Below, in pieces: positions 3,958 to 22,127 of a stretch of DNA of 64,000 bases. Each line of letters begins with the position of its first letter. Positions within the stretch are counted from its first letter, which is position 1. The DNA is from Pseudobdellovibrionaceae bacterium (lineage in GTDB: Bacteria; Bdellovibrionota_B; Oligoflexia; Oligoflexales; Bog-1112). The position numbers and the translations under genes are program-made. The notes beneath the pieces were generated by a model that was not told the DNA's origin, did no database searches, and worked only from the letters and a program-made list of their open reading frames with translations. The stretch is taken from the NCBI GenBank assembly GCA_002711925.1, contig PASJ01000027.1, positions 5,372 to 69,371 of the forward strand. Direction: 5' to 3'.

Positions 3958-4147
3958 GGATCTTTCCTTGTTCTTGATCAAAAGTATACTTAATATTATA
4001 CGGTAAATAAAAAAAGATACAAATCTAATTCGCAAATAACCAAAAACATCACAAGAAATTTAAGATCGATAAAAAATCATCGCTCTCAGAAAAAAAAATA
4101 TCTCAAAAGCAAAAACTAGTGAATTTATTAATCAAAGAAAAATTATT

Positions 4148-5100: not shown

Positions 5101-5748
5101 TTATTTTGCCATATTAAAAGCTACAAAAGATACGGTAGAATCAAAATATAAACGATTCCCATACATTCCCGTTATTTTCAACTGTTTTAATCTAATGAAT
5201 TTATCAGACTTTTCAGCCTCAATTAAAAAATTCAGTAACCTTGGAATAGATATTTTAGCTAATTTAAAATCAATTTGCTTTTCTTCTATTTCATCAGACA
5301 AAGGATCATTTGAATTTCTTTCAACTCTTTCTACATTAAGGCCTTTCATATCGACCTTCTTTTCGTTAGAAAGGCTTTCGAAAAATGGTTTCATGTTCAA
5401 GCCTTGCGTTTTCTTTCGAATTAATTCCACCAAACTATTAAATTTATTTTTTTCGACTTGAAACTCTACTATCGAATCAGTTAATTCTCCATAAGCAATC
5501 GATACTTGATTTAATTCTTTGTCTAATGAATTAACATTATAAAAGTAGAGGGAAAGTAAACCTCCAATAAAAAACAAAACTAAAGCAGCAGCACCGAAGA
5601 GTGCTCCAGTTCTTTGTTCAGGCTGCAACTTATAGAAACTATCGATAATAAAATCAATATTTTCATTGTTTCTACCAAAGACCTTTTCTTTTAATTGGAC
5701 TATTGGTTGACTGAATAATTCATTTATTTTATCTTTTAATGCATTCAT
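5101..5748 (-). CDS. gspM: T2SS inner-membrane protein GspM-like
   Basis: Bitopic topology with one TM segment (GALFGAAALVLFFIGGLLSLYFY). It is about 215 aa and lies between gspL and gspN. Confidence 0.45.
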   Translation of the reverse strand: MNALKDKINELFSQPIVQLKEKVFGRNNENIDFIIDSFYKLQPEQRTGALFGAAALVLFFIGGLLSLYFYNVNSLDKELNQVSIAYGELTDSIVEFQVEKNKFNSLVELIRKKTQGLNMKPFFESLSNEKKVDMKGLNVERVERNSNDPLSDEIEEKQIDFKLAKISIPRLLNFLIEAEKSDKFIRLKQLKITGMYGNRLYFDSTVSFVAFNMAK

Positions 5749-5783: not shown

Positions 5784-7430
5784 TCAATTTTCTATACCAT
5801 AAGTTGTTTCGTAAACAGCTATTTTAATTGTTGAACCAGGTTTTGTATCAGAAGATTTTTCAACAATTTCTCCAAAATTTTTAATTTTAGATATAGCTTG
5901 ATTAAATTTTGCTAGAGTATCAAAAGAATCTGCTTCAACTCTTAGCTGAATTTTACCACTACCGTCTGGTTGACTAACATACTTGTATTCAACAACATCT
6001 ACTTTAATCTCTTTATCTAGATTCTCACTAATGTGCTTTATTGCTAAAAGTGAGCCACTATCGCCAATAACATTCTTAAATTGACTAATAGAATTTTTGA
6101 AAGATTTTGATCTATCTCTAATCTCAGTTAATGAATCTCGTTTGATTTTACTAAAAGGAATTTTAGGATTTTTGTATCGATTTTTCATTTCAGGCAAAAC
6201 ACTAAAAAACTGTTTTTTATAAATATTTTCAATCTTATTAATCTCTTGATTAAAAATATAATATTTCAAGCCATAGCTAACTGTCAAAAGTAATATTATA
6301 AATGAAAGACCTTTAGCGACGCCACCAAGGATCGAGAACAAAGAACCATAATCTTGGATATACGCATACTCATCTTTTCTTAAATTAATCTGAGACTGTT
6401 TTTTTAAAGAAGTAACAGCCCTTAAAGCAATACTAACACCTTGAGCAATATTAGCTGTTTTATCCACTAAATGATCACTAATCTGCAAATTTGATTGGGA
6501 AATTTTTGAAAAAGAAGAATTGACACCAACCTCAACTTCTATAAATTTTTCAAATCCTTTAATTAGACTACTACCACCTGATAAGTAAAGCTTTTCAACA
6601 GGAGATTTCTCCCAAGATTTGAAGGCATAGAGTGTTCGTCCGAGCTCACGAACAATAGCATTAGAAGCTTGCGTTATATTTTTTGCAACACCAAGTGAAA
6701 CCCCAGTTAGTGAGTCATTTGATCCAGGTAGTAGAATTTGACTTACTTCATGCTTAAGTCTTTGAGCTTCATCATATGAGACTTCTTGATCCTTAGCGAT
6801 AAAATCTGTTATGTACCTTCCACCAAGGTTTATAGAACGAAACAACCTTAAAACGCCATCTTGTACTAAGCAAATAGATGTTTTTTCATGTCCAACATCA
6901 ACTATTCCGTAGCATTTTCCAGCTTCCATATCAAGATACGGATTTAAATTATAGAAAGTTAAACTATCTACATCAACTAACTTAGGGTCTATATCTACTT
7001 TCTTAAGGTGATTAAGAAAATTTTCCATAAAAATTTTCCGAGTCAATACAATGAGGGCCATGGTTTTGTCACCCATTGTACCTATGATCTGATGGTCAAG
7101 TATCATGTCGTCTAGATCATATGGGACAACGTCTTCAATTTCCGCATAAACGGCAGCCTCAACCTTACTTGGATCAGAAAAATTAAACGGCATTATTCTA
7201 CTAGAAATATATTGCCCAGGGATAGCTGTGATAATACGATCTGCTTTAATTTGATTTTCCGAGAAAAGCTGCTTCATACAAGCAGGTATAATTTGCTCAG
7301 TTGGAACTTTATTAATTTTAGGAATTACATTTTCATAATAATTTGAAATCTCATAAGATTTAAACTGATTTATAATTTCTACGGCCTTAATAGAATAACT
7401 ACCAATGTCTAAACCAATTATCTTTTGCAT
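5784..7430 (-). CDS. gspL: T2SS assembly protein GspL with a PilM/FtsA-like actin-fold N-terminal domain
   Basis: The N-terminus MQKIIGLDIGSYSIKAVEI is a PilM/FtsA-type phosphate-1 motif. A later block reads LYLSGGSSLIKGF. One TM segment (GLSFIILLLTVSYGLKYYIF) precedes a ~150-aa periplasmic tail. The gene lies between gspK and gspM. Confidence 0.6.
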   Translation of the reverse strand: MQKIIGLDIGSYSIKAVEIINQFKSYEISNYYENVIPKINKVPTEQIIPACMKQLFSENQIKADRIITAIPGQYISSRIMPFNFSDPSKVEAAVYAEIEDVVPYDLDDMILDHQIIGTMGDKTMALIVLTRKIFMENFLNHLKKVDIDPKLVDVDSLTFYNLNPYLDMEAGKCYGIVDVGHEKTSICLVQDGVLRLFRSINLGGRYITDFIAKDQEVSYDEAQRLKHEVSQILLPGSNDSLTGVSLGVAKNITQASNAIVRELGRTLYAFKSWEKSPVEKLYLSGGSSLIKGFEKFIEVEVGVNSSFSKISQSNLQISDHLVDKTANIAQGVSIALRAVTSLKKQSQINLRKDEYAYIQDYGSLFSILGGVAKGLSFIILLLTVSYGLKYYIFNQEINKIENIYKKQFFSVLPEMKNRYKNPKIPFSKIKRDSLTEIRDRSKSFKNSISQFKNVIGDSGSLLAIKHISENLDKEIKVDVVEYKYVSQPDGSGKIQLRVEADSFDTLAKFNQAISKIKNFGEIVEKSSDTKPGSTIKIAVYETTYGIEN

Positions 7431-7519: not shown

Positions 7520-8815
7520 TCAGATCATTTTCCAAAAAAGGAGCTGATATGAACGTTTCACCTTTTGGGAACCTCTACCATTTTTTGTTTCCTTAGGCAT
7601 TATTCTCCTAACAATAGCTTCGATAGATCTTTCTCTTTCGCCTGTTGTAGCATTTACTTTTATTCTAAAAACTTCGGATCGATTGGAGAACCACTTTTCT
7701 CGATTTGATGACTGATTCTGGTTATCTTGGCTTTTATTGTAACACAAAAGACTATTTAGTGTTTCCGAAATATCTCCACTACTAACCGCTTTCTTATTCT
7801 TCTTAAAATCATACATTTTTAATGCAAAATTCTCTGCACAAGAAGCAGATATTGCCTCTGGAACTAAACAACCAAGCAATTCTCTCGGTGCTGAATTTAT
7901 ATTTATTTGAGACTTATGACTACTAACTTTATTGATGGGGTAGATTGTCAAGTAATTTGAGAAAATTTGATGTAATTCTTCATCCCAGCCCTCAACTAAT
8001 TTAAGTTCATCTAGAGTAGCAAGTGGTAATTGCTTAGCTTTATAAGGAGGAGTGTATTTTTCGTAAGGAGAATTTTTATCAGAGTAACCAGACTCAGCTG
8101 AAGGATTTTTACTACTATTGATAAAATCTTTAATTCGATATGCTAATTCAGCTGGAACTATATTTTTATTGTCTAGGAATTTTTTTTCTGCAGGACATGA
8201 AAATAATGCTATCAATTTAGAAACGACTTCTGTACACCTGCCCGAAGAACAATCATTAAGATTAATCCTATTACCCTCGTCTTGAATATTAATTGTAAAA
8301 TTATCCTCGAACAACTTCATTATTTCTGCAGATCCTTCATTCATGATACCACTAGTTTTAAAAACATCTTCTTGATTTTCCTTACCCAGAGACCTTGCTA
8401 ATTCAAGACTACTTGCACCAAGGGGGGGTAATGAATTAAATGTATTCCACAAACTCTCATCGCTATCTGTAAGATCTTGCTTTATTGGAGCCGGAGCACT
8501 TGGTTGTGCCCTATATAGATCAATTCCCCAACTCATACTTAAAAGAAATACAGCCAAGTTATAACCAGACTTCGCAATATATTCAGCCTTTACTCTATCA
8601 CGAGTACTGACAGCCAACTGTAAATTAACCGCAGAAGAAATCATAAGATCACTGACAAATCCCATCATCATAGCAACTGTCATTAAAGCTATGAGAAGAG
8701 AAATGCCTTGTTTCCTTTTCTTTTGGACAACTTCCGAAACACAACCTGATTCAAAAGGAAATCCCCAATACACTTTAGGGATTCGAGATTTTATTTTTTG
8801 TAAATAGTTTTTCAT
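7520..8815 (-). CDS. gspK: T2SS minor pseudopilin GspK
   Basis: The pseudopilin-like N-terminus KRKQGISLLIALMTVAMMMGF lacks Glu at +5, as is typical of GspK. It has a large periplasmic domain and sits directly after gspJ. Confidence 0.65.
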   Translation of the reverse strand: MKNYLQKIKSRIPKVYWGFPFESGCVSEVVQKKRKQGISLLIALMTVAMMMGFVSDLMISSAVNLQLAVSTRDRVKAEYIAKSGYNLAVFLLSMSWGIDLYRAQPSAPAPIKQDLTDSDESLWNTFNSLPPLGASSLELARSLGKENQEDVFKTSGIMNEGSAEIMKLFEDNFTINIQDEGNRINLNDCSSGRCTEVVSKLIALFSCPAEKKFLDNKNIVPAELAYRIKDFINSSKNPSAESGYSDKNSPYEKYTPPYKAKQLPLATLDELKLVEGWDEELHQIFSNYLTIYPINKVSSHKSQININSAPRELLGCLVPEAISASCAENFALKMYDFKKNKKAVSSGDISETLNSLLCYNKSQDNQNQSSNREKWFSNRSEVFRIKVNATTGERERSIEAIVRRIMPKETKNGRGSQKVKRSYQLLFWKMI

Positions 8816-8848: not shown

Positions 8849-9589
8849 TTAAAGACGAAAGCTAGATAGTCTATCTTTAATCTCGTCAAAATCCAAAGCA
8901 TAAGGAAGATAGACTACGGTAGAGTAAGTATCAATTGCTACATTATCAGTAAAACTGTCGATACCTTCTTCTGATTCATTTGCAAAAAGTTCAATGTCCA
9001 CTTTAATAATTTGAGGTATACGATTTTGAGTTTCTCGACTTGTACTATCCCAACCATCTTTTAACCACCCATCACCATTCCATGGAGTAAACTTTATTGA
9101 CTTTACATTTCTTGCAAACAGATTCATTTTTGGATCTTCTTTGAAATCTTCGGGAACTCTTGGAAACTCACCTCGGTATAGATGACTAACTCCTCCACTT
9201 TCCTGACCTTCTTTAACTTCATAAACAACATAAGACAAAGATGCCTCTTTACTATTCTTGTGTATTGGACTATGTCCCATGTAAGTAAAAGCTAGACGAT
9301 CTCCCTTATCTGAAGATTTAATAACAAAAGAAGTGATAGTTTTACCGTTTGTTCTTAAGTCATCTTTAGTTGAGAGTAAGAAAGCATGGGATAAATCATA
9401 AGAAATTTTATCCATAATTCTATTTAAATTTTGAGTAACTCGCGCCTTGTCTCCTAAAGCAAACTTAATATCTATACTTGATTTTAACATCTGTGAAACG
9501 GCAAAAATAATAGAAACTAAAATGGTAAGTGCAATTAAGACTTCAAGTAAAGTGAATGCTTTTTCAGTTTTTTTAAACATTATCTTCAT
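8849..9589 (-). CDS. gspJ: T2SS minor pseudopilin (GspJ position)
   Basis: Prepilin-type N-terminus KKTEKA/FTLLEVLIALTILVSII with Glu at +5. Assigned by operon order. Confidence 0.6.
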   Translation of the reverse strand: MKIMFKKTEKAFTLLEVLIALTILVSIIFAVSQMLKSSIDIKFALGDKARVTQNLNRIMDKISYDLSHAFLLSTKDDLRTNGKTITSFVIKSSDKGDRLAFTYMGHSPIHKNSKEASLSYVVYEVKEGQESGGVSHLYRGEFPRVPEDFKEDPKMNLFARNVKSIKFTPWNGDGWLKDGWDSTSRETQNRIPQIIKVDIELFANESEEGIDSFTDNVAIDTYSTVVYLPYALDFDEIKDRLSSFRL

Positions 9590-9602: not shown

Positions 9603-10259
9603 TTATAAATTATCTGAATCTATAGGAACACACTTTCCATCGGCATCCATAACCTGACCATCAGCACAAGTCGGAGTAGGCTGACTTTTTTCACCACCAG
9701 GTGGTGAAAGCTGTTCAATTTTTTGATCTAACACAAGTTGATTTGTTAATAAGTATGTAAGCTGAACGTCATTTCTTTTACTTCCTTCAGGCCAAGTAAC
9801 TTTTATGTGAGCAACCTTTAGAAGCTCATCACCCAAGGTGCTTTTTAATTGATCTTTTATCATTTCTGTCATTGGATTTGGCTCTGCACTCTCATCCTCT
9901 GATGATTGATTTCCTAAAATTATGTCTATTAATGGGAGCTTCCACTCTTTTATAGTTAAGTCATACCTGAAGTCACAACCAAAATCTGAGTCTTTAGGAC
10001 ATAGGTCATCTTTAAACTCTTGTTCTTTAAGCTCCATGTTCATTTCAGATAAAGGATAAAAGTTAGCCTTATACTCAATTTGAGCTAACAACGCTTTTCC
10101 TAACCAAGTCGCTTGTGTTAGATTTCTTTCATAGGTTGAAAAGTTTAAAGCATTACCTTGCACAGAAGCAACTTCTAAAAGAATTGTGACCATTAGGCCA
10201 AGTGCAATAATGGTTTCTAATAAAGTGAAGCTTCTCTCCCCCTTTTTCCGATATAGCAT
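9603..10259 (-). CDS. gspI: T2SS minor pseudopilin (GspI position), oversized, with a Cys-containing tail
   Basis: Prepilin-type N-terminus KKGERS/FTLLETIIALGLMVTILL. The C-terminal tail reads PTPTCADGQVMDADGKCVPIDSDNL. Assigned by operon order. Confidence 0.55.
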   Translation of the reverse strand: MLYRKKGERSFTLLETIIALGLMVTILLEVASVQGNALNFSTYERNLTQATWLGKALLAQIEYKANFYPLSEMNMELKEQEFKDDLCPKDSDFGCDFRYDLTIKEWKLPLIDIILGNQSSEDESAEPNPMTEMIKDQLKSTLGDELLKVAHIKVTWPEGSKRNDVQLTYLLTNQLVLDQKIEQLSPPGGEKSQPTPTCADGQVMDADGKCVPIDSDNL

Positions 10260-10308: not shown

Positions 10309-11097
10309 TTATTCTATTTGATTCATTTCATCACTATCGTATTCAACAAGACCATTTAGAATCTCAACGGTTCCTCTGTATGCTTTTGTTATGACTGAAT
10401 AAGGTTTTTGATCCTGATCTATTTCGACTTCATCTTTACGATAATGAATATGAATAAGTGCTTTTTCTATGTAACCAGACGGCAGAAGATAAATATAGGC
10501 TCGATTATCTTCTTCAACACTTTCAAGAACAACAGGCTCCATGTGATGTTCAGCTTGGATAGATGTTATGATAAGAAGATCTGTTAACTGGCGGCCCTGC
10601 CACTCTAAAGAAACAACTTTATTCCATTTGATTGGCATTAACTTTTCTTTGGCTCTCAGAAGCGGTGATACTGGTAATATTTCATCTTCACTTAAAGGAT
10701 CAGTAAAAGTTTCACCGGCAAGATCTTCATATTCTTTAAACTTTTCATCGAATAAAACTTGTTCCTCTTCTTGCTGCTCTTGTGTTAAATCCTTTTCGGA
10801 CTTTTGATCACCCATGTAAAAATGATCAGAATCTGTACTTTCTAACCAGTATTCTCCAGAAACTAAATCAAAAACAAGTCTGTGAGGCTTAGCATTCAAA
10901 ACTGTTAAATCAAAAGCAGCACGGACGTCACTACTAAGTCGCGCTAGAGAGTCTGCAATCTGAGTTTGAGTCTGAATACCAAGATTGGGAAGGGCGATGG
11001 AGTAAACACCAGCAATCAGGGCAATAACAATAATTATTTCGATGAGGGTAAAAGCAGATTGCCTTTCTACAAAAATTTTTTTGTTACGGCAAGTCAT
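10309..11097 (-). CDS. gspH: T2SS minor pseudopilin (GspH position)
   Basis: Prepilin-type N-terminus VERQSA/FTLIEIIIVIALIAGV. It is the first gene after the major pseudopilin. Confidence 0.55.
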   Translation of the reverse strand: MTCRNKKIFVERQSAFTLIEIIIVIALIAGVYSIALPNLGIQTQTQIADSLARLSSDVRAAFDLTVLNAKPHRLVFDLVSGEYWLESTDSDHFYMGDQKSEKDLTQEQQEEEQVLFDEKFKEYEDLAGETFTDPLSEDEILPVSPLLRAKEKLMPIKWNKVVSLEWQGRQLTDLLIITSIQAEHHMEPVVLESVEEDNRAYIYLLPSGYIEKALIHIHYRKDEVEIDQDQKPYSVITKAYRGTVEILNGLVEYDSDEMNQIE

Positions 11098-11217: not shown

Positions 11218-11682
11218 TTACTCAGTCTTTTCAGGATAAAAAATATCTAAGTCCGTCCCAAGCTCGCCATCTTTACCAGGAGATGTCAGTTGGTAATTTC
11301 TACCGTCGGATTGATACTCTACGTCGTTTCCCCAAGCATCAACCAACTTACTTTTTTCAATGTAAGGGCCTCTCCACCTTTTTGTTCCACCTGGATCGGC
11401 AACTAAAGAGTTGATACCTTGCTGAGTTGTTGGGTATTTTCCATTATGTACTTTATAAAGTTGAAGTGCTTGAGAAATATTGCCTAACTGAATCCTAGTT
11501 TGATCTTCATAAGCACCATCTGCTTGATCAGTTACGTTTCTAATTAGAATTGTCATTAAAGACCCAATAATAGCTATAACGATGATAATTTCAATAAGGG
11601 TCATACCTTTTCTTTGACCAGAGTTAAATGGTCTATTCACAAACTTACTTAATTTTAAAAACAAACGATTTAAGATTTGCAT
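11218..11682 (-). CDS. gspG: T2SS major pseudopilin GspG
   Basis: Prepilin motif QRKG/MTLIEIIIVIAIIGSLMTI. GspG-type body: LQLYKVHNGKYPTTQQGINSLV...RWRGPYIEK...DAWGN...Y.SPGKDGELGT.DI. A GGAG Shine-Dalgarno lies 5 nt before the ATG. Confidence 0.9.
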   Translation of the reverse strand: MQILNRLFLKLSKFVNRPFNSGQRKGMTLIEIIIVIAIIGSLMTILIRNVTDQADGAYEDQTRIQLGNISQALQLYKVHNGKYPTTQQGINSLVADPGGTKRWRGPYIEKSKLVDAWGNDVEYQSDGRNYQLTSPGKDGELGTDLDIFYPEKTE

Positions 11683-11712: not shown

Positions 11713-12933
11713 TTATCTCATCTGACTCATTATGGAAAGCATAGGTACAAGCATAGCAACAACAACGAGCACGACAACCCCCCCCATAAAAATAATCATC
11801 AAAGGTTCAATAAGTGATATCATAGATTCAATCTTTCTTTCAACTTCTGCATCATAAGCATTTGCCACATGCTGTAACATTTTTTCTAATTCCCCTGTTT
11901 TTTCCCCTGTTTTAATCATATGACTTACCAAAGCAGGGAATTGGCCACTTTTTTCAATGACACCGCCAAGACTTTCTCCTTCTTGAACGGCTTGTTTTGA
12001 ATTCATAACTACATTAGAAATTACCGTATTTGAAATCACGTTTTTTGTTATTTCAAGAGCAGGTATAATTGGAACCCCTGAGCCAAGAAGAGTCGAAAGA
12101 GTCTTCGTAAATTTAGAAATATTGACCCTCATAATGATAGAGCCAAACATTGGAACAACTAAAGAAAACCGATCAAAAGTTGCTCGCCCAGACTCAGATT
12201 CATACCAGTATTTAAATAGTACAAAGCACCCACCTATTGCAGCAATAACCAGATACCATTGATGCTGAAGAAACTCTGAAACAGAAATTAAAAACTTAGT
12301 ATACCAAGGCAAAGTAATCTTTAGACTCGTAAAAACTTTTTGTAACTTTGGTACAACGCTAACAAATAGATATACAATTATGCCCAATGAAGCAGTTATC
12401 ATCAAACCAGGATATGAGAGTGCACTGAATATTTTACCTTTGATAGCTACTTGATACTCTTGAAAATCTGCAAGACTTTCAAGTACCAAACCAAGATTTC
12501 CTGCTGTTTCTCCAGCTTTCACCATGTTGACATAGAGCCTATCAAAAACTCCAGGAAAATCGGCAAGAGAATCGCCAAGAGATTTCCCTTCAGAAACAGA
12601 CTCCTTTACCGCTGCTAAGGTATTTCTTAAAACTAAATGATCCACTTGTTCAGTCAAAGCCTTCAAGCATTCATCAAGCGGAACTTGAGCAACCTGCAAA
12701 GTTGCAAACTGCTTGGTCATAATTGCAAGATCTTGTAAACTAACCTTACTGGCAAAAAGTGAGCTTGAAGACTTAGACTTTTGGACACTCAATTCCTCTT
12801 TCAACTCTGATGGAATTATCTTTTCTTTGGAGCGAAGCTTTTGACGAGCTGCTTTAGGAGATTCAGCTTCAAGCTTCCCTTTACGAGAAGCTCCAGTTTT
12901 TGAATCATATCCCTTATATAAATAAATAGGCAA
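11713..12933 (-). CDS. gspF: T2SS inner-membrane platform protein GspF
   Basis: About 400 aa with the duplicated GspF-type architecture (two cytoplasmic helical domains and three TM segments). It ends in PLMIIFMGGVVVLVVVAMLVPM. TTG start preceded by GGGAG. Confidence 0.9.
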   Translation of the reverse strand: MPIYLYKGYDSKTGASRKGKLEAESPKAARQKLRSKEKIIPSELKEELSVQKSKSSSSLFASKVSLQDLAIMTKQFATLQVAQVPLDECLKALTEQVDHLVLRNTLAAVKESVSEGKSLGDSLADFPGVFDRLYVNMVKAGETAGNLGLVLESLADFQEYQVAIKGKIFSALSYPGLMITASLGIIVYLFVSVVPKLQKVFTSLKITLPWYTKFLISVSEFLQHQWYLVIAAIGGCFVLFKYWYESESGRATFDRFSLVVPMFGSIIMRVNISKFTKTLSTLLGSGVPIIPALEITKNVISNTVISNVVMNSKQAVQEGESLGGVIEKSGQFPALVSHMIKTGEKTGELEKMLQHVANAYDAEVERKIESMISLIEPLMIIFMGGVVVLVVVAMLVPMLSIMSQMR

Positions 12934-12962: not shown

Positions 12963-14747
12963 TTACATTTCAAGATCTTCAGTTTGTGTTGTAGAGATAG
13001 CTTCTTCTATTGAAGTTATCCCTTCAAGAACTTTTCTTACAGCTGAAATGCGTAATGTTTTCATCCCATTTTTTAGTGCTAATTTTCTGATTGCAGAAGA
13101 ATCTTGAGTTGTCATGAGAAGTTCTCTAAGAGGATCATCAAGAACAAGAAGCTCATGAATTGGAGTTCTTCCACTATAGCCACTTTGAAAGCAGTGCTCA
13201 CAACCTGATCCTACTTTATATATTTTTTTACCTTTTATATCTTTTGGTGTAATCTCCATCAACTTCATTTCTTCTTCGGTTGGAGTATGCTCTTCCTTAC
13301 ATTGCTCACACAAGCGCCTTATTAACCTGGTAGCCATTACACCTAAAAGTGCTGAAGCTATTTGAAACGGCTCTATATCCAAATCATCAAGTCGAGTAAT
13401 TGTTGAAGCAGCATCGTTTGTATGCAGTGTTGAGAAAACTAAATGACCAGTTAAAGATGACTCTACTGCGATTTTAGCTGTTTCATTATCACGAATTTCA
13501 CCAATCATTATAACATCTGGGTCTTGACGAAGGATGGATCTAAGCGCAGCTGAAAATGTTAGACCAATTTTAGATTTAACATCAATTTGACCTAAACCGG
13601 CCAAAGTATATTCAACTGGATCTTCAACTGTCATTATATTAATATCGGGTTCATTAATATGAAGAACTGATGCATAAAGTAATGAAGACTTACCTGATCC
13701 TGTCGGTCCTGTTACCAAAACAATACCATGCTTTTGTTGTACCAACGCTGTCCACGCTCGATATGTCCAATCGTCCATACCCATTTCTTCTAATCGTCTT
13801 ACACCTGCAGACTTGTCTAACAACCTCATAACAACTCTTTCGCCATGAGATGTTGGAAGAATTGAAAGACGAACATCAATATCTTTGCCTGCAACCTTGA
13901 TACTGATACGACCATCTTGTGGAATTCTTTTTTCTGCAATATTAAGCTTACCAATAATTTTTATACGAGAAACAACAGCACCCACATGTCGTTTAGGTAC
14001 TTGCATAGCTTCATGTAATGTCCCATCGATACGAAATCTTACAATAACTTCGGTTTCAAAAGGTTCAATGTGGACATCTGAAACTCTTTCTTTTACCGCT
14101 CGAGCTAAGAGGCTATTTACAAGTCTGATAATAGGTTTATCGTCATTTGATGCTTCAAGTAAATCCTTAGCTTCTTCTAGGTCTTCAGAAGAATCTATAT
14201 CTGATACATTTAAAGCATCTATTGCTTTTTGAGATGCATCTTGAGCTCTTTCATACACACGATTAATTGTGTTATTAATTACGTTTGGTGTACTTACAAC
14301 CATATTTATATTTGCAGATAAAATTAACCGCAAATCATCCATAGGAAAGATATTTAAAGGATCAGCAACAGCTACTGTAATATTGAAGGAATCTCTTGCA
14401 ATAGGTAGAATTAAATGATCTCTACAAAATTGAATAGGAATATTTTCAACCAATTCTGGGTCAATTTCAGCAACAGGTAAACGATCATAATATGGTAAAT
14501 CAAGCTGAATAGCCAAAGATTTTAACATTTCATCTTCGGTAACATACTCTTTTTCAACTAAAATATCACCTAATCTTTTACCATAGCTAGTTTTTTGAGC
14601 TTGCAATGCGTCATCTAATTGGTCTTGCGTAATCGTACCTGTTTTGATTAAGACTTCACCAAGAGGCTTTTTTTGCAAATCACGAAATGGACGTTGCCCT
14701 GGAGTCACATTTTTTAAATTTGATATACTTTTGTCTTCTTCACTCAT
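12963..14747 (-). CDS. gspE: T2SS ATPase GspE with an MshEN-type N-terminal domain
   Basis: Walker A VTGPTGSGKSS, the Asp box, Walker B DPDVIMIGEIRD and the His box SLTGHLVFSTLHTN are all present. The tetracysteine cluster reads CEQC...CEHC. The N-terminus carries LGEVLIKTGTITQDQLDDALQAQ and RLGDILVEKEYVTEDEMLKSLAIQ. Confidence 0.95.
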   Translation of the reverse strand: MSEEDKSISNLKNVTPGQRPFRDLQKKPLGEVLIKTGTITQDQLDDALQAQKTSYGKRLGDILVEKEYVTEDEMLKSLAIQLDLPYYDRLPVAEIDPELVENIPIQFCRDHLILPIARDSFNITVAVADPLNIFPMDDLRLILSANINMVVSTPNVINNTINRVYERAQDASQKAIDALNVSDIDSSEDLEEAKDLLEASNDDKPIIRLVNSLLARAVKERVSDVHIEPFETEVIVRFRIDGTLHEAMQVPKRHVGAVVSRIKIIGKLNIAEKRIPQDGRISIKVAGKDIDVRLSILPTSHGERVVMRLLDKSAGVRRLEEMGMDDWTYRAWTALVQQKHGIVLVTGPTGSGKSSLLYASVLHINEPDINIMTVEDPVEYTLAGLGQIDVKSKIGLTFSAALRSILRQDPDVIMIGEIRDNETAKIAVESSLTGHLVFSTLHTNDAASTITRLDDLDIEPFQIASALLGVMATRLIRRLCEQCKEEHTPTEEEMKLMEITPKDIKGKKIYKVGSGCEHCFQSGYSGRTPIHELLVLDDPLRELLMTTQDSSAIRKLALKNGMKTLRISAVRKVLEGITSIEEAISTTQTEDLEM

Positions 14748-14755
14748 AAAAAAAC

Positions 14756-17308
14756 CTATCTGCTAGATTCACTGTCTGATATATTATCAAAGCTTTTTAA
14801 AAGATTTTCAGTATCAAGGCTTAATCTACTTTCATCAGAGACAAAAGGTACCGTGATTTCTTTTTCTTTTGTCTCACTTGATTTTTCATAGGAATCAACC
14901 ATTGCCGATGTATAACCCATTTCAATATATGCGTCTCTTCTGATCTGCTCTAGGTGACTATTCTCTTTCTTATCAATTTCATCTGGCTTGTATTTACCAT
15001 CTTCTAACTGAGGAATACTCTTAAAATAATTATCGTCACGGTACCCGCTTCCAAACACTTTGTTCATAAACTCATCACGCTCTTTGATCTTAGCAGCATA
15101 AATAGCAGCTAAATCACCAGCCCCGTGAATAACATGAGGAGTTATAAATATGACAAGATTACTTTTAGACCCGGAAAGCATTCGATTACTGAAAAGCCAA
15201 CCTAGAATTGGAATATCACCAAGAAGAGGGATCTTTTTGATGCTTTCTATATTATTTGACTTCATGAGTCCTGAAATAACAACTGTTTGACTATTCTTTA
15301 CTGTAACAAGTTGCTTGCTTTTTCTTTTGGCAACTTGAGGAAGATTTTGAGAAATTCCTTTTACAAAGTTAGACTCGAGCTGAACATTTAATGTAATATA
15401 ATTAGAATAACTAATGTTCGGTTTAATTGTTAAGGTTAAATCAACATCTTCTTTCTGGACTGATTTAGCAACACTTCCTGTCGTTGAGGTAGTTTCAGTT
15501 GTGTAAAAAACTTTTTCACCGACAGAAATAGTAGCTTCTTCATTGTTAGAAGTTAAAATTTGCGGAGAAGATAAAATTTTAGAATTTCCATCATTTTTAA
15601 TTAAATTAATAAGCATCCCTGGACTAAAAGTACCAAATCCTTCTAATTCAACTGATTGTCCCGCTAAGATTCCAAGAACAAAATCTTGAGAAAATGAATT
15701 AGCAACACCTTGAAGAGTTGTTATAGATGTTGCTGCTGTTTGACCCTGTTGGGCTTGAGCAAGAATAAGATCTTTCATTTTTGCACCTTCCCAGCCAAGT
15801 AAAGCTTTATTTGCACTACTTCCTCTATCTGAAGTAAGTGCTCCTGCAAAAATAGAAATACCCGAATTAAAATCGTTTTGTTCACTTATATCAATAATAT
15901 CTGCTTCCACATATACTTGACTTCTTCTTATATCAAGTTTTCTAACAATAATATTTAAAGCTTCATAAGCAGCTCGACTACCAGTGATAATTAGTGAGTT
16001 GGTAGCTTCATCCGAAGTTATTTTTACTCCATCACCAAGATCTGAAATCGAAGGAGCTCCACCTGTATTTGTTGAAGATGCTTTTGACCCTCGAGAAGAA
16101 TTCTTATTTTTACCACTTGTTAATGACGAAAGAGTGGTTGCTATTTTTTTAGCATCAGCGTAGTCTAACGGTCTGACGTGTATTGAAGCCTGACTTCTAG
16201 GGTCATCAATAGGCATATCGAACATATTAACAAGCTCTTTAACATCTTTTATTGTTCGCGGAGGACCGAAAATTATGATTGAATTTGTTCTTTCATCTGT
16301 TAGAACTTTAAATGTGTGATATGAAGTACTTTTCTTAGATCCAGAGCCTTTCAAAATTTCTTTTACTTTGGTGGCAACATCTTTAGGATCAGAGTGCTTT
16401 ATTGGTACTATCATAACTTTAGGCTGTTGAGTTTGAACATCGATCATGTCAAGTACATCGAGAACTCTTTTAATTTGATAACCTGTATCAGAGATAATAA
16501 GTGTATTTGTTGGTTCGTAGGCAATTATTGATCCTGGTGAAACAATTTTCGATAATGTTGTTGTCACCTCTTTGGCATCAACATACTTTAATGGTATAAT
16601 TTGGGAAATAATTTCATCGGTTCGTAAAGTCCAATTTGATCCGTAGAAAGTTCGTAAGTTTGCCTTTGTTGCGCTTCTTAATTTCATTATCTTTATAACT
16701 TTTCCAGTTTCCACTGTTGTTAAACCAAGCATGTTTAATGCAGACAAGAATGCTTGGTATGCTTCTTCTTTTGTTACTTTTTTAGGAGATATTATTTGAA
16801 TTTTTCCAGTAACGTTTCTGTCGAGGATAACATTTCTACCAGTCCATAAAGAAACTGCTTTTATTATGTCTTTGATGTCAGTTAACTCAGGAAAATCCAT
16901 ATTGACCAGTTCAACTCCAGGGTCTATGAGATCAGCTCCTTTCCCTGATTTCCTCGGTTTTTCTCCTTCATCACTATCGCTAAGATAAGAAATTTCTGAT
17001 TCCTCGTTACTTTTTTCTAAGATTTTTTTCACTTTTGCTTGAGCAATTAAAGTATCTTTTAGTTGTAACTGGTTTTCTTGTTGAGTTATTTTATTATTAT
17101 CTATATCTTGAAGCTTTTTCTCGTCATTTAATTTAATCTTATTTAAAGCTTTTTTTAATACGTCAGGGTCAAGTTGATTTTTTCCACCTTCAGGATCTTT
17201 TTTTTCCATAGTATTCTCTAAAATAGGATTCGAAGAGTTACTTTGAGAAAAACCTGATGTTGTCACAGAAAAAAATATAGCAAGAAAAAATATTAAATTA
17301 ATTTTCAT
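14756..17308 (-). CDS. gspD: T2SS secretin GspD, long paralog (D2)
   Basis: Signal peptide MKINLIFFLAIFFSVTTSGFS (ATG at 17308; the ORF-track GTG at 17341 is less likely). N0-like block IKAVSLWTGRNVILD...AYQAFLSALNMLGLTTVE. Secretin core ...KIPLLGDIPILGWLFS...VIFITPHVI. It also has a charged N-terminal linker and an acidic C-terminal tail. Confidence 0.9.
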   Translation of the reverse strand: MKINLIFFLAIFFSVTTSGFSQSNSSNPILENTMEKKDPEGGKNQLDPDVLKKALNKIKLNDEKKLQDIDNNKITQQENQLQLKDTLIAQAKVKKILEKSNEESEISYLSDSDEGEKPRKSGKGADLIDPGVELVNMDFPELTDIKDIIKAVSLWTGRNVILDRNVTGKIQIISPKKVTKEEAYQAFLSALNMLGLTTVETGKVIKIMKLRSATKANLRTFYGSNWTLRTDEIISQIIPLKYVDAKEVTTTLSKIVSPGSIIAYEPTNTLIISDTGYQIKRVLDVLDMIDVQTQQPKVMIVPIKHSDPKDVATKVKEILKGSGSKKSTSYHTFKVLTDERTNSIIIFGPPRTIKDVKELVNMFDMPIDDPRSQASIHVRPLDYADAKKIATTLSSLTSGKNKNSSRGSKASSTNTGGAPSISDLGDGVKITSDEATNSLIITGSRAAYEALNIIVRKLDIRRSQVYVEADIIDISEQNDFNSGISIFAGALTSDRGSSANKALLGWEGAKMKDLILAQAQQGQTAATSITTLQGVANSFSQDFVLGILAGQSVELEGFGTFSPGMLINLIKNDGNSKILSSPQILTSNNEEATISVGEKVFYTTETTSTTGSVAKSVQKEDVDLTLTIKPNISYSNYITLNVQLESNFVKGISQNLPQVAKRKSKQLVTVKNSQTVVISGLMKSNNIESIKKIPLLGDIPILGWLFSNRMLSGSKSNLVIFITPHVIHGAGDLAAIYAAKIKERDEFMNKVFGSGYRDDNYFKSIPQLEDGKYKPDEIDKKENSHLEQIRRDAYIEMGYTSAMVDSYEKSSETKEKEITVPFVSDESRLSLDTENLLKSFDNISDSESSR

Positions 17309-17544
17309 AAACCCACCAACCTTTTCGAGGAAAAAATTCACAATTTAGCTTTTGGTAAATGTGCAAAAAATAAAAATTTTATGCGATTTAAGTTTGCAAA
17401 ACACACTTTCACTCCACCACCTGAAAACAGACTATAAGAACTAGCCCTTTCCTTCACCGTAGCATCTACCATCTTTATCATCTACAAGACAAGAGGCATT
17501 ATATGTAAGATACTATTATTAATGCAATAAATAAAGTGTTAGTG

Positions 17545-19503
17545 CTAATGACTTTTCAAAAAGTGGGAAAAAAATTCATCTTTAGAGGCTCCACTTCTTT
17601 GTAGCTCTAAGAAACTTTTATTTGTAATTTCTGATAGATCATTTTGTCCGTAAATAATATGAGGCGTAATAAAGAAGAGTAAGCGAGTGTTATCAAGATC
17701 TTTTTTTAATGTCTTAAAGAAATAACCAAGAATAGGCAAGTCACCCAAAATCGGCACTTTATTTTGATGTCTAAAATCACTAAAGTTAGAATATCCTGAC
17801 ACAAAAACTGTTTGTCCAGAGTAGGTATTAATCTTTTGTTTTATTTTTCTTTTAGCCACACGTGGGTATCCATCCTCACTTAAACCGACGATTGATGTTA
17901 GGTTTAATTCAAGATCAATATCAAGCTCATTATCTTTTGTTATGTGTGGCGTTAGTAATACTGATATCTCAGAAGATTCTTTTTCAACTTTTTTACTAAC
18001 TGCCCCTGTAGAACTGATACTTTCTGTAAGGAAGGCATAGGTATCACCTGAACTGAATGAAGTTTCAACCCTATCAGAAGATATTATATATGGCTCTGAC
18101 ACAATACGAGAATTAGAGTCATTCTTTATAAGTTTTAATAGCTGTGTCGGACGAAATTTTCCTAAGCCACTAATTTCAGCATTGCCGGAAAAAACCCCAA
18201 AAACAAAATCTTCTGTTAAGGAAGAAGGAAGTTGTGGGACAACTGTATTAGTATTACTTTGAGCTTGTTGAACAATAATAGGAGCTACACTGCCACCTTG
18301 CCAACCTGAAATTATTTTAGCATCGTCATTTATTTCTTTACCCAGCCCAATTTGAGATGCTGAAAATTGAAAAGAAGAACCTGAGACTATTTCAAGTACG
18401 GAAACTTTAAAATGAACTTGAGCTCTTTTTTTATCAATTCGATTTAAAAGTTTATCAAATAATTTTAAATTTTTTTCGTACCCTTCAACAACAATAGCAT
18501 TTGAAGCTTCATCAGCAGACATTTTTAACTCAGAGCCAAGCGTGAAAACTTCAGATGAATCACTAAATTCTATACTTGATTTATCTTTTGACTTATCTCT
18601 TAGCTTTTGAAGTGTATTCAAAACATCTTTGGCCTGGAGATAGTTCAACTTATAAACTCTAAATGATGATGAATTGTCAGCATCACTTCTAGTATCAAAA
18701 AAAAGGATCTTTTCCTTTAGATAATCAATATAAGATTTTTTTCCTGCCAAAATTAAAGCATTAAGCTCACTGTCTAGTATTATCTTATTCTCCCCACTAC
18801 TACTAACATTTTTTCCCAAATATTTTTCGAGTTCTAGGCCGTTTATTATTTTATAAAGCTCTTTGGCTAGAATATGTTTCGCAAAGTAAATTTCAACATC
18901 AAAATGTTGATTAGGAACATCAATTTCAGTGAGTATTCTTTCTATCTTTCTTAAATTATAATTTGTATTTGTTATAAGAATAGCGTTGTATTGCTGTAAA
19001 TCAATATATGTTCCCGGATCAAGATAATGAGTCAAAATTTTTAGTAAATCTGATGATTGGATATATTTTAGATATATGATTTTTGCTATAACAGAATCTA
19101 AAAACTCTGACTCTTTTACTTTTAAACTACCAATATTTTTACTTTTCAAGGAAACAATTTTAGTTAACCTACTGGTTTCTATGGTAGTAAAACCTAAAGT
19201 ATTTAAAGCAGAGGTATAAATTTGATAAGCTAAATTTAAAGGTATTTTTTGAGGTACAATAATTTCAACTTTTCCTGAAAACTTTTGATCATAAATTAAA
19301 TTTTTATTTAGTTCAGTAAAAATTCGCTTTGAAATATCTTTTATATCTGAACCTGCTTTATAATTAAAATCAATTAATGACTGACTCGAATCTTGAGGCT
19401 GTCCATGGATATCTAAATTAATACATGAAAAAAAAAATAAAAAAATATACAGCAATTTTAAAGAAAAACAACAAGTCACCCTCTTTTGTAGTATAATGAT
19501 CAC
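17545..19503 (-). CDS. gspD: T2SS secretin GspD, short paralog (D1)
   Basis: Signal peptide ending in FFFSCINLDIHG. N0-like block ISKRIFTELNKNLIYD...AYQIYTSALNTLGFTTIE. Secretin core ...KVPILGDLPILGYFFK...LFFITPHII. Confidence 0.9.
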   Translation of the reverse strand: MIIILQKRVTCCFSLKLLYIFLFFFSCINLDIHGQPQDSSQSLIDFNYKAGSDIKDISKRIFTELNKNLIYDQKFSGKVEIIVPQKIPLNLAYQIYTSALNTLGFTTIETSRLTKIVSLKSKNIGSLKVKESEFLDSVIAKIIYLKYIQSSDLLKILTHYLDPGTYIDLQQYNAILITNTNYNLRKIERILTEIDVPNQHFDVEIYFAKHILAKELYKIINGLELEKYLGKNVSSSGENKIILDSELNALILAGKKSYIDYLKEKILFFDTRSDADNSSSFRVYKLNYLQAKDVLNTLQKLRDKSKDKSSIEFSDSSEVFTLGSELKMSADEASNAIVVEGYEKNLKLFDKLLNRIDKKRAQVHFKVSVLEIVSGSSFQFSASQIGLGKEINDDAKIISGWQGGSVAPIIVQQAQSNTNTVVPQLPSSLTEDFVFGVFSGNAEISGLGKFRPTQLLKLIKNDSNSRIVSEPYIISSDRVETSFSSGDTYAFLTESISSTGAVSKKVEKESSEISVLLTPHITKDNELDIDLELNLTSIVGLSEDGYPRVAKRKIKQKINTYSGQTVFVSGYSNFSDFRHQNKVPILGDLPILGYFFKTLKKDLDNTRLLFFITPHIIYGQNDLSEITNKSFLELQRSGASKDEFFSHFLKSH

Positions 19504-19519
19504 TTAAATAAGATCCCTT

Positions 19520-20494
19520 TTATTTGATTTCTACTTCAAGACTACTTGGCTTACTATCTCTTAATATATAAATTCGTATAAGATCTTCATTTTGAAAAGC
19601 TTCGTACAAAGAAAATCCATTATCTGCTGTTAAAGGAGTATCATTAATCTTAGTCACAATATCGTTATTTTTTATACCAGACTTGTCTAATAAAGACCCT
19701 TTTTTAATGGAAAAAAACTTAAATCCCTTAAAAACATCACCTTCTTGAACTGGTACCATTCTCGCAGACTGTAGGACGTTACCAAACCCATCTCCCAATT
19801 CTGACTCAACCCAAGAAGACTGAAGTAAAAATGACTTGGGACTTGTATCTTTATTTTGATTTATAGTTTTGCTTTGAAAAGCTTTTTTTGACGAAATCTG
19901 ATCTTCTTTAGATGTATAAATACACTCTTTTTTACCATTATTATTTAAAATCAAAACTTTTGGCTGAATCAATGCAACTTGAACACCTTCTTGACCCACT
20001 AAAAACTCGCCTTTTAAGTAAACATCCACATCTTCAACCCCCTTCTCCCGCACAACAGCCACTGTCTCTTTGCCTTCGCTAAAGAAAATTGTACCGACTA
20101 GTTTCAAAGGTAGTTTACTATCTTGGCAAGATGCATTTATATCGAAAACATCATCAAAAACTAAATCTTCCTCTTCAATTGTTTCATCTGGAAAGTTGCC
20201 CTCAAGGTTAAATATATTGCGATCTAATATTCCTTTTTTAATATCTCTAAAATTTATATTGCTCGAATCAACTTTGAACCTTTCAGCTTTTGTAACAATA
20301 GGATTAGAATTTGATATTGCGTCGATCAGGGTAGGTAATATAAAGGAAATAGCAACACCAGAAAGAATATAAGAGAAACTTAGCAAACCTATAATCAATG
20401 AAATTTTTTTAACTAATAAACTCAGAGAATTTTTTTCACCTGAATAAACTGATTTTAAAAACTTCCTAAATATCATTATAATTTTTTCTTGCAT
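19520..20494 (-). CDS. gspC: T2SS GspC-like protein, paralog 2 (TM + HR-like + PDZ-like)
   Basis: The start ATG at 20494 lies 1 nt after the TAG of the upstream paralog, so the ORF-track start at 20536 is over-extended. TM segment ISLIIGLLSFSYILSGVAISFIL. HR-like block LPLKLVGTIFFSEGKETVAVV. PDZ-like block GFKFFSIKKGSLLDKSGIKNNDIVTKIND. Confidence 0.6.
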   Translation of the reverse strand: MQEKIIMIFRKFLKSVYSGEKNSLSLLVKKISLIIGLLSFSYILSGVAISFILPTLIDAISNSNPIVTKAERFKVDSSNINFRDIKKGILDRNIFNLEGNFPDETIEEEDLVFDDVFDINASCQDSKLPLKLVGTIFFSEGKETVAVVREKGVEDVDVYLKGEFLVGQEGVQVALIQPKVLILNNNGKKECIYTSKEDQISSKKAFQSKTINQNKDTSPKSFLLQSSWVESELGDGFGNVLQSARMVPVQEGDVFKGFKFFSIKKGSLLDKSGIKNNDIVTKINDTPLTADNGFSLYEAFQNEDLIRIYILRDSKPSSLEVEIK

Positions 20495-20495
20495 G

Positions 20496-21470
20496 CTAGC
20501 GAACCTGAACATTAATAGTTTGCATTTTGCTGCCACGTTTTATTTGCATTTCAATGCTTGACTCATTTCTTAACGAGTTTAGCAATCTTATTGCTTGAGC
20601 GGTATCGACAAGTTGAACCCCATTTATCTCTCTAATGATATCATCATTTTGTAATCCAGACTTTTGATAAATAGAATCTTGACGGACTCGAACAAGCCTA
20701 AAACCCTTTAGCTCATTACCTTCAAAGTAAGGCTCAGCCTTGGCGTCTTGTAAAACTTTAGTAAAATCTGTTGTCAAAAGCTTTTGACGAAATTCTTGAG
20801 ACATGACTATTTCACTACCAACACGTTCAAAACCTTCTTCTTTATATGAGTCAGGGGGAGCATCTAAGGCAAAAGTGGGAAGATCAACCGTCTTCTTTTT
20901 TGCTTTACCCTTCTGTCGTTTTTGGGGCAACAAAAAAGGATCCAACTCCATAAATTCTTTGAACTTACCATTTTGAATAATAATTTTTTGCTGATGAACC
21001 TCTATCAAAAAAACGTCAGCACTTATTTCGTCTCCCACAAAAAAGCTATTTATCGACTTATCTTTACTTCTTTCAATAAGAGCAAGGCCTGATAATTTGT
21101 CTCCACCGTAAATAACTCCAACAAGTTTCATGGGGAGTTGCGACAGCAAAACTTCATCTATAGTTTCTTTATCTCTTTTTACTATAGTTTCAGTATCCCC
21201 TGTCTTTCCTTCTATATTAAAAATATTTCTTTCAATGATTTTTCCGATATCTCCATCGGATAAAGTAGCACCACCTCTTTCCAAGATCAAAGATGATTCA
21301 ACCTCTTTTCTTTTGTTTTTTTTACCAAAATCAGGTAATAAAATTTTGGAAAAATACAAGGAAACAGAAAAAGATAGAATAAAAGAAAAAATAGCTATAT
21401 ATGAAATATTTTTGTAAGGAAAATTTTTTAAGACTTGTAAAGCCTTAAAGTTAAATTCAGCAAAATTCAT
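20496..21470 (-). CDS. gspC: T2SS GspC-like protein, paralog 1 (TM + HR-like + PDZ-like)
   Basis: TM segment ISYIAIFSFILSFSVSLYF. HR-like block LPMKLVGVIYGGDKLSGLALI. PDZ-like block GFRLVRVRQDSIYQKSGLQNDDIIREING. It is the first gene of the gsp operon. Confidence 0.6.
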   Translation of the reverse strand: MNFAEFNFKALQVLKNFPYKNISYIAIFSFILSFSVSLYFSKILLPDFGKKNKRKEVESSLILERGGATLSDGDIGKIIERNIFNIEGKTGDTETIVKRDKETIDEVLLSQLPMKLVGVIYGGDKLSGLALIERSKDKSINSFFVGDEISADVFLIEVHQQKIIIQNGKFKEFMELDPFLLPQKRQKGKAKKKTVDLPTFALDAPPDSYKEEGFERVGSEIVMSQEFRQKLLTTDFTKVLQDAKAEPYFEGNELKGFRLVRVRQDSIYQKSGLQNDDIIREINGVQLVDTAQAIRLLNSLRNESSIEMQIKRGSKMQTINVQVR

Positions 21471-21524: not shown

Positions 21525-22127
21525 TCAAACTTTTAATAAAGACTGTATCCGTCTTGCACAATCATTAGGTGTCAAATAGTCTCCATTAACAAAGACTTCT
21601 GCCTTTTCATAAAACTCACGTCTTTCAAGCATAAGATCGTTTAATTTTTTTTCTAAATCTTGTGTCATTGTTGACAATCTTAGTTTTTTGCTTAAATCAG
21701 ACAACAAAGGTCTACTTACTATGCTCATCTCATTCTTCAAAAGACGCTTCACTATATGCTCAATAGAAATATCTAACCAAACAAGAACTCCAAGTTTATG
21801 AATTCGAGACCTATTCTTTTTATCTAGCAAGGCCCCTCCACCGAGAGAAATAACATGATTTTTAACTGACAACAGCTGCTCCAGCTTATCTGATTCAACT
21901 CTTCGAAAACTGTCTATACCATATTTTTTAACAAAGTCAGAAATTGATAATTTAACTTCTTTTTCAATCAATTGATCTAAATCAAGAAACCCCATTCGCA
22001 TCAGCTGCGCGACCTCGCGGCCCACTGTGGTTTTACCGCATCCAGTTAATCCAATAATGACAATATTAGGCAATAGGTTCTGATCTATAGTGCTGAGAGT
22101 CTCTTTATTATTTTGAACCTTTGACAT
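21525..22127 (-). CDS. aroK: shikimate kinase
   Basis: P-loop NIVIIGLTGCGKTTVGREVA followed by LDLDQLIE and SLGGGALL. The ATG at 22127 is preferred over the TTG at 22145. Confidence 0.85.
   Translation of the reverse strand: MSKVQNNKETLSTIDQNLLPNIVIIGLTGCGKTTVGREVAQLMRMGFLDLDQLIEKEVKLSISDFVKKYGIDSFRRVESDKLEQLLSVKNHVISLGGGALLDKKNRSRIHKLGVLVWLDISIEHIVKRLLKNEMSIVSRPLLSDLSKKLRLSTMTQDLEKKLNDLMLERREFYEKAEVFVNGDYLTPNDCARRIQSLLKV

Follow-up and report, generated by a model that had tools for sequence, protein, structure and literature searches.

Tandem GspC paralogs across sampled Oligoflexales and a clade-specific second secretin in a type II secretion operon

The DNA considered here, below called the window, is a stretch of 64,000 nucleotides (nt) from a marine metagenome-assembled genome (MAG; assembly GCA_002711925.1, contig PASJ01000027.1). 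It carries a type II secretion system (T2SS) operon in which two tandem gspC genes (C1 and C2) are followed by two tandem genes of GspD-class secretins (D1 and D2). The C pair is the normal state across the sampled Oligoflexales, while the second secretin is the exception. Since the C pair is found in nearly all loci and the extra secretin in one sub-clade, the two duplications are, on the phyletic evidence, independent and differently distributed, and the layout with two C and two D genes (C2D2) is a superposition of two separate events. On balance we lean towards a single machine with a two-paralog C layer, D2 as the main gate and D1 as a clade-specific accessory gate.

The operon is on the minus strand, from 22145 down to 4148, in the order aroK, C1, C2, D1, D2, gspE-F-G-H-I-J-K-L-M-N. 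The order from C1 to N had been proposed in an earlier note on this DNA, and it holds, with I and M placed by position and sequence features only. All four C and D open reading frames (ORFs) are full length in DNA of 33% GC and lie at the coordinates given in that note. The part of the operon upstream of gspE is composed as follows.

21525-22145, minus strand: aroK, ahead of gspC1
20496..21470, minus strand: gspC1, 324 amino acids (aa); transmembrane (TM) helix, RNxFN motif, HR domain and C-terminal PDZ domain (PF11356, NF041515)
19520..20494, minus strand: gspC2, 324 aa from ATG 20494; TM helix, RNxFN motif, HR domain and PDZ-like C-terminus (PF11356, NF041515)
17545..19503, minus strand: gspD1, 652 aa; signal peptide, N0, N1-N3, secretin barrel and two C-terminal helices
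17342..17544, minus strand: intergenic gap between gspD1 and gspD2, 203 nt to GTG 17341 or about 236 nt to ATG 17308
14756..17341, minus strand: gspD2, an ORF of 861 aa (about 850 aa from ATG 17308); linker rich in Lys, Glu, Asn, Asp and Gln, N0, secretin and C-terminal extension

The C1/C2 junction reads TAG-c-ATG, with the C2 ATG (20494) 1 nt past the C1 stop, as had been stated before; the C2 ORF reaches further upstream, to GTG 20536. D1 starts at GTG 19503, 16 nt past the C2 stop, and is preceded by a Shine-Dalgarno-like motif AAGGGA.

Relatives were collected with a D2 profile from a set holding a single genome for each species, which yielded 80 loci, all of them Oligoflexales-like; among them are Oligoflexus tunisiensis Shr3 (L055), a cultured type strain, and MAGs of Pseudobacteriovorax. 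About 10 kb of flanking DNA was inspected per genome, the ORFs being searched with the window proteins. The order aroK-C1-C2-D-E, with a C1-like and then a C2-like gene before the secretin, is observed in 68 of the 70 loci with sufficient upstream DNA, and C1 and C2 are never single in any informative locus having C genes. The survey for the C2D2 layout that the earlier note had suggested does find it elsewhere, in 14 loci with two C genes and two secretins, but most relatives (49 clean loci) combine the C pair with a single secretin. The two exceptions among the 70 loci are an orphan D2-type secretin (L015, 9620-11872), which lacks C and E genes in the 9.6 kb on its upstream side and the 4 kb on its downstream side, and a locus with D and E present and no C gene in 1.7 kb upstream (L058, 1717-4131); both could be due to rearrangement or chimeric assembly.

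Several loci deserve separate mention. In L082 (8635-12281) both C2 and the secretin are broken into two ORFs each, which could be due to frameshift errors of the MAG, or else the T2SS may truly be pseudogenised in this lineage. In one Oligoflexales MAG (L052, 8412-9554, plus strand), an additional ORF located between C2 and the secretin is very weakly C2-like (23 bits) and would be a third C gene; tblastn with thresholds of E<=1e-3 and above 35 bits did not confirm it. The source MAG of the window itself is labelled as Zetaproteobacteria or Pseudobdellovibrionaceae, and its T2SS genes group with those of Oligoflexales.

From the C1 stop to the C2 start there is a median of 5 nt, and in 50 of 65 loci at most 12 nt, a tight spacing that suggests coupled translation and near-equimolar amounts of the two proteins. 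In the tree of 66 C pairs and three outside GspCs (this and all other trees being neighbour-joining trees on corrected distances), the upstream-C family is monophyletic in 200/200 and the downstream-C family in 196/200 bootstraps, with identities of 0.42 and 0.40 within the families and 0.22 between them. By this comparison of sequences, the C duplication is ancient and predates the sampled Oligoflexales radiation. Between close relatives the ratio of nonsynonymous to synonymous divergence (dN/dS) is approximately 0.05-0.08 for C1 and 0.01-0.05 for C2. Beyond Oligoflexales, the search with the C2 profile returned almost only the C2 family itself; the nearest outside GspC obtained (P0327) belongs to an operon of different order with a single detectable C gene.

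Both C proteins are, judged by their profile matches, divergent GspC proteins, with membership claimed at the level of the family and not of the equivalog. The HR domain model PF11356 (T2SSC) is matched by C1 with 34.3 bits and by C2 with 27.6 bits, in both cases over the cut-off of 27, and the top NCBIfam match of both is GspC_delta (NF041515), covered at near full length (C1 117.1 bits, 10-311/311; C2 101.5 bits). The closest solved structure for both is the OutC/PulC chain 6hcg_e from the Klebsiella outer-membrane complex, with C2 aligned across the HR domain. C1 and C2 are 29% identical to each other (E 2e-19). Of the TM, HR-like and PDZ-like blocks previously ascribed to both proteins, the TM and HR parts stand in both: the N-terminal hydrophobic segments, read by eye, are ISYIAIFSFILSFSVSLYF in C1 and ISLIIGLLSFSYILSGVAISFIL in C2. 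The PDZ part stands in C1 (PDZ_2 with 37.3 bits, cut-off 27), and in C2 the corresponding match falls short of the threshold (see below), though its C-terminus aligns with the PDZ region of C1 and with the end of NF041515.

Core residues of the HR and PDZ regions are common to both C families. After the TM helix and before the HR domain, both families strongly conserve a motif R-N-x-F-N-x-x-G (C1 81-88, C2 92-99), which we take to resemble the RDPF-type motif of PilP-like proteins and which may be a platform-binding segment. Two Cys residues flanking the HR domain (C123 and C191 in the window protein) are invariant in 66/66 members of the C2 family; the C1 family lacks them, and a periplasmic disulfide may exist between the two.

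The N0-like domain and complete secretin core that had been claimed for both D proteins are indeed present in each. N0 (PF21305) scores 43.3 bits in D1 and 76.9 in D2, Secretin_N (PF03958) 76.6 and 135.8, and the secretin barrel (PF00263) 110.9 and 148.5, respectively. The two are collinear: an alignment of 638 residues, running from N0 to where the secretin domain ends, gives 31% identity (E 1e-92). The top NCBIfam family for both is GspD (TIGR02517), with D2 over the cut-off of 351.35 (437.8 bits), and models of PilQ, SctC, MshL, HofQ and RcpA-like secretins all score far below GspD. In the sequence search of PDB with D1, GspD 15-mers come first (5zdh, 137 bits), followed by PilQ (64), RcpA (41) and InvG (34); for D2, too, T2SS GspD is the best match in PDB. 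The AlphaFold2 monomer model of D1 (mean pLDDT 74) contains N0, N1, N2, N3, the barrel and two C-terminal helices, and Foldseek places PulD (6hcg_A, E 1.7e-27) first, the top seven matches all being T2SS GspD. D1 also retains the near-invariant residues of the family, including G486, in the segment SSGDT aligned with SVGEK of D2. According to both the sequence matches and the predicted fold, D1 is a divergent paralog of the GspD class. The sequence FFSC in its signal peptide had raised the possibility of a lipoprotein ("liposecretin"), which was rejected, as no Cys is conserved in the D1-type orthologs, whose signal peptides are ordinary.

The two secretins differ in distribution and rate. D2 has hundreds of homologs with 52-62% identity in Oligoflexales MAGs, and the D2-position proteins of two-secretin loci form a clade with the secretins of single-secretin loci (195/200 bootstraps) that leaves out every D1-position protein. 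On this tree, D2 is the ortholog of the sole secretin in most sampled Oligoflexales and the principal secretin. For D1, an exhaustive search of 1.84 billion representative proteins gave no homolog above 34% identity, and a word-index search gave nothing but distant GspDs and the identical protein from Tara. The three closest relatives from the exhaustive search (L088, L089 and L090) occupy the same operon slot, and together with 14 genome loci they provide the positional orthologs of D1. In the concatenated tree of C1, C2, D2 and E from 61 genomes, the 14 two-secretin genomes lie on one side of a single split (195/200), which therefore means one gain or one loss.

D1-type copies have a mean identity of about 30% to each other, compared to 61% for their D2 partners, and of about 33% to D2-type proteins. 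In the same genome pairs they diverge faster than D2 by a median factor of 3.1 (range 2.1-4.4). Their approximate dN/dS is 0.04-0.11, compared to about 0.02 for D2 and 0.01-0.03 for GspE, so that, by these estimates, D1-type copies are fast-evolving yet under purifying selection. Identity between the D1 and D2 types is highest in N0 and the barrel core (0.41 each) and lowest in N2 (0.22). The intactness that had been claimed for all four C and D copies is borne out by the full-length ORFs and the purifying selection, and all four belong to the C and D classes of the T2SS. As for the dating of the duplications by identity and phylogeny, it succeeded for the C pair, which predates the radiation; for the D pair only six diagnostic columns bear on the timing, and the distances and tree given below fit a duplication before the whole sampled radiation as well as one before the two-secretin clade only.

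The exhaustive search with D1 also returned giant proteins of 2,500-5,500 aa with a secretin domain at the end (P0151, P0155, P0171-P0173 and about 50 others). One of them (P0151, 3,947 aa) has about 40 Secretin_N repeats before one PF00263 domain. From their domain composition these look like giant secretins with very long stacks of periplasmic N-domains.

D2 probably starts at ATG 17308 (MKINLIFF, with GGTGG upstream) rather than at GTG 17341. Its extra length relative to D1 does come from a linker, Ser/Gly-rich sequence and a tail, as described before, but the sizes have to be revised: the linker before N0 is about 100 aa and not about 130 aa (Lys, Glu, Asn, Asp and Gln make up 53% of residues 35-139), the Ser/Gly-rich insertions are small, about 20 aa in all, and the C-terminal tail is about 80 aa and not about 110 aa. 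The tail contains 22% Asp and Glu and 15% Lys and Arg, and the extension is partly conserved. D1 has neither the N-terminal linker nor the long C-terminal tail.

The gap between D1 and D2, put at 200 bp in the earlier note, is 203 nt if counted to GTG 17341, but about 236 nt with the likelier ATG 17308. It contains no terminator-like hairpin and no Rfam match, and promoter-like matches in it are at the chance level (32 found, 35.2 expected), a TATAAT box among the gap sequences being unremarkable for DNA of 33% GC. In relatives the gap varies from -4 to 398 nt and is not conserved in length. No signal above chance for an internal promoter or terminator was obtained. Co-transcription of D1 and D2 is plausible, because there is no terminator between them.

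The single machine that we favour could work as follows. C1 and C2 would be present in the same machine and would jointly make up the GspC layer, through which the GspL/M/E/F platform is connected to the secretin's N0 ring. In the Klebsiella platform the components PulC:E:L:M:N are present as 2:1:1:1:1, and each HR domain binds one N0 independently (PMC6882859). By analogy, one C1 and one C2 per L-M-E protomer would most likely fill the two GspC positions measured in Klebsiella, a suggestion made because there are two PulC per protomer there and because the C paralogs are tightly spaced and always co-occur. The differing PDZ and HR surfaces of C1 and C2 might widen or partition cargo recognition, or give two kinds of contact. 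D1 would most likely dock on the same C layer, without a private C adaptor, and form its own separate ring and gate, an in-operon counterpart of XqhA, which works with the Xcp machine of Pseudomonas aeruginosa. Co-assembly of C1 and C2, pore formation by D1 and the shared platform are thus proposals, placed on top of the observed gene integrity, class, phyletic pattern, orthology, rates and selection. A more specific form of this machine, in which the paralogs are obligate and non-interchangeable, with six C1 and six C2, and the fast secretin of the sub-clade docks as a separate gate on the heteromeric cage, is offered tentatively and may well be wrong.

The earlier note had proposed either two gates, each with its own C adaptor, on one inner-membrane platform, or a heteromeric secretin. 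Dedicated pairs, with one C for D1 and the other for D2, would agree with the adjacency and integrity of the two C and two D genes, and XphA/XqhA is a known alternative module of GspC and GspD on a shared platform. This arrangement is nevertheless disfavoured, because the C pair lives without a second gate in most relatives and no C-D pairing is singled out: both C genes are kept in the 49 clean loci with one secretin, the C duplication appears to predate the sampled radiation, and the extra secretin is limited to one clade. Partial correlations of distance matrices are alike for every C-D combination (0.59-0.74), and this mirror-tree approach was therefore discarded as a means to pair C with D proteins. 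Moreover, N0 is among the best-conserved regions between D1 and D2, with no obvious change of partner visible. We consider dedicated pairs improbable, slightly more so than a mixed ring of D1 and D2. The latter is suggested by the adjacency of the two genes in one operon with no terminator between them, by the barrel core, which shares with N0 the highest D1/D2 identity, and by the mitochondrial T2SS-derived systems, which have retained a pair of GspD C-domain paralogs of which one is divergent (PMC8134430). But D2 orthologs work alone in most relatives, every solved T2SS secretin matched here is a homo-oligomer, and the threefold faster evolution and low identity of D1-type copies, both among themselves and to D2-type proteins, are hard to fit to the conserved subunit interface of a 15-mer. 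A mixed ring is thus unlikely.

To the same low degree we would credit mutually exclusive use of C1 and C2, with one C type per machine depending on condition or cargo. The families are diverged in their PDZ and HR regions (0.22 identity) and each family has its own invariant residues, including the Cys pair of C2; in other systems, the PDZ domain of GspC is reported to affect the substrates secreted (PMC12369372). However, the spacing of 1-12 nt in 50 of 65 loci points to coupled and not alternative expression, and neither gene is found without the other in informative loci with C genes. Least probable by far is that one copy of each pair is decaying or foreign to the T2SS, D1 being of another secretin class or a pseudogene, or C2 a generic PDZ protein. 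D1, C1 and C2 do fall under the NCBIfam equivalog cut-offs, D1 and C1 are annotated by NCBI as hypothetical, and D1-type copies evolve fast. Against this stand the full-length ORFs in DNA of 33% GC, the low dN/dS of D1-type copies and of C2, and the positional orthologs conserved through a deep clade, which speak against decay. GspD is the best class of D1 by hidden Markov model (HMM), PDB sequence and fold, which speaks against another secretin class. C2 combines an above-threshold T2SSC match in the HR domain with a full-length GspC_delta alignment, and C1 likewise matches both, so that neither looks like a generic PDZ protein.

Some observations weigh against the single machine with an accessory gate, or against parts of its basis. 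C1 and C2 do not reach the equivalog cut-offs (150 for NF041515; in TIGR01713, with a cut-off of 101.6, C1 scores 81.7 and C2 53.4 bits), D1 scores 253.0 bits with TIGR02517, under the cut-off of 351.35 (PilQ 131, SctC 92), and PDZ_2 in C2 scores 23.3 bits, under the cut-off of 27. The dN/dS values are approximate due to saturated dS. D1-type proteins are equidistant from D2-type proteins and single secretins (p-distances 0.672 and 0.675, p = 0.06), and their monophyly in the neighbour-joining tree is recovered in only 20/200 bootstraps, where the placement as a basal grade may be a long-branch effect. From these sequences, an ancient D duplication with one loss is as parsimonious as one gain. 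The distribution of D1 was judged within the flank of about 10 kb, and D1-like genes elsewhere in single-secretin genomes are possible. Finally, the protein-protein contacts in the proposed machine are inferred.

The genes downstream of D2, all on the minus strand, complete the T2SS.

12963..14747, minus strand: gspE, ATPase (TIGR02533, 649.8 bits, cut-off 630)
11713..12933, minus strand: gspF, platform protein (TIGR02120, 422 bits; two PF00482 domains)
11218..11682, minus strand: gspG, major pseudopilin (TIGR01710, 101.5 bits, cut-off 88.85)
10309..11097, minus strand: minor pseudopilin in the GspH position (N_methyl motif, weak TIGR01708 match)
9603..10259, minus strand: minor pseudopilin in the GspI position (prepilin-type N-terminus KKGERSFTLLETIIALGLMV; no HMM match)
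8849..9589, minus strand: gspJ, minor pseudopilin (PF11612, 32.7 bits)
7520..8815, minus strand: gspK, minor pseudopilin (PF21687, 38.1 bits; NF037980, 102 bits)
5784..7430, minus strand: gspL-like, with a PilM/actin-like cytoplasmic domain (PF11104, 110 bits)
5101..5748, minus strand: bitopic protein in the GspM position (assigned only from its place and its single TM helix; no HMM match)
4148..5086, minus strand: gspN of the Leptospira type (TIGR04411, 107 bits, cut-off 50)

Besides the MshEN domain, residues 28-81 of GspE match the MshE-type motif for binding of cyclic di-GMP (NF053729, 65 bits, cut-off 38), which suggests control of the secretion ATPase by this messenger. Directly downstream of gspN, at 1702-4035 on the minus strand, there is a 777-aa protein with TPR and SLT lytic transglycosylase domains, whose best NCBIfam match is the Borrelia model of a flagellar-assembly lytic transglycosylase (132.8 bits, cut-off 234); from these domains, it may be a peptidoglycan-clearing enzyme for the assembly of the machine.

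The operon is surrounded by ordinary genes of a chromosome (ffh, aspS, the Na+-NQR operon, apbE, acs and a uvrA-like gene), and is therefore not on an obvious mobile element. Upstream of aroK (22633-24813, minus strand) is a gene whose 726-aa product has regions weakly similar to LuxE and LuxC and resembles a fusion of an acyl-protein synthetase and a reductase; this protein also adjoins the operon in L089 (917-3142), one of the three closest D1-type relatives. A 161-aa ORF standing alone between ffh and aspS (30081-30566, minus strand) matches the T4 gp19 tail-tube family with 27.8 bits (cut-off 28.2) and could, on this near-threshold match, be a remnant or a stand-alone tube-like protein.

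NCBI names D1 (MBC61367.1) and C1 (MBC61369.1) hypothetical proteins, and a C2 ortholog (P0286) is publicly named "type II secretion system protein N"; for this group, T2SS components are therefore miscounted by automated means. One further window protein has an exact match there (MBC61365.1), and the proteins also occur in Tara Oceans data.

On every criterion open to analysis the locus is a T2SS, with C1, C2 and D1 as divergent members under the equivalog cut-offs. Its general plan is that of the canonical systems Pul of Klebsiella, Eps of Vibrio and Gsp of E. coli: one operon encodes C, D, E, F, G, H-K, L, M and N, C has the TM-HR-PDZ architecture and D the N0-N3-secretin architecture. However, the canonical T2SS has one GspC and one GspD, while nearly all sampled Oligoflexales loci have two GspC (29% identical in the window) and, in one clade, a second secretin. 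Unlike the canonical systems, the window also has a Leptospira-type GspN and a D2 with a long low-complexity linker and a C-terminal extension.

Among known systems, XphA/XqhA of P. aeruginosa comes closest to an alternative gate working on a shared platform, and the concept is thus already known. The primary study of this pair is reportedly that of Michel, Durand and Filloux 2007 (J Bacteriol 189:3776). There, a second GspC and GspD form a hybrid machine with the remaining components of the Xcp T2SS (reviewed in PMC6567927). The pair xphA-xqhA is a coupled C and D pair outside the xcp locus and separately regulated, whereas all four genes of the window are inside the operon; and, unlike XphA/XqhA, the C pair of Oligoflexales mostly occurs without a second D, so that the duplications differ in distribution. 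In the Klebsiella 2:1 layout (Chernyatina and Low 2019, PMC6882859) the two PulC chains come from one gene, while here there are two paralogs, for which non-equivalent roles may be supposed; with two tightly spaced C genes, each protomer would likewise be supplied with exactly two C chains. In some protists, the mitochondrial system derived from a T2SS, with GspD and GspDL, also has a conserved paralog of the secretin C-domain beside a much more divergent one, but it is eukaryotic, has split N-domains and is of unrelated origin (PMC8134430). The literature search, with incomplete coverage of subscription journals, returned nothing on the T2SS of Oligoflexus or Oligoflexales, on tandem gspC genes or on tandem T2SS secretins within one operon. 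The earlier remark that no characterised T2SS with the C2D2 layout is known is hence consistent with the searchable literature, but for the underlying idea of a module on a shared platform XphA/XqhA is a precedent.

Of the two parts of the finding, the tandem GspC pair present throughout the sampled Oligoflexales is the more interesting one. How the hexameric platform is coupled through about 12 GspC chains to the 15-fold secretin, and what role GspC has in the choice of cargo, are open questions in T2SS biology. Two diverged gspC genes kept across the order, including the cultured Oligoflexus tunisiensis, make a natural experiment on the equivalence of the GspC positions, and the clade-specific extra secretin is an in-operon case for asking whether one platform serves two gates. 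If the tentative form of the machine with six C1 and six C2 were true, this would be the first T2SS in nature whose gene content itself records that the GspC positions are non-equivalent and how a 12-fold cage meets a 15-fold pore.

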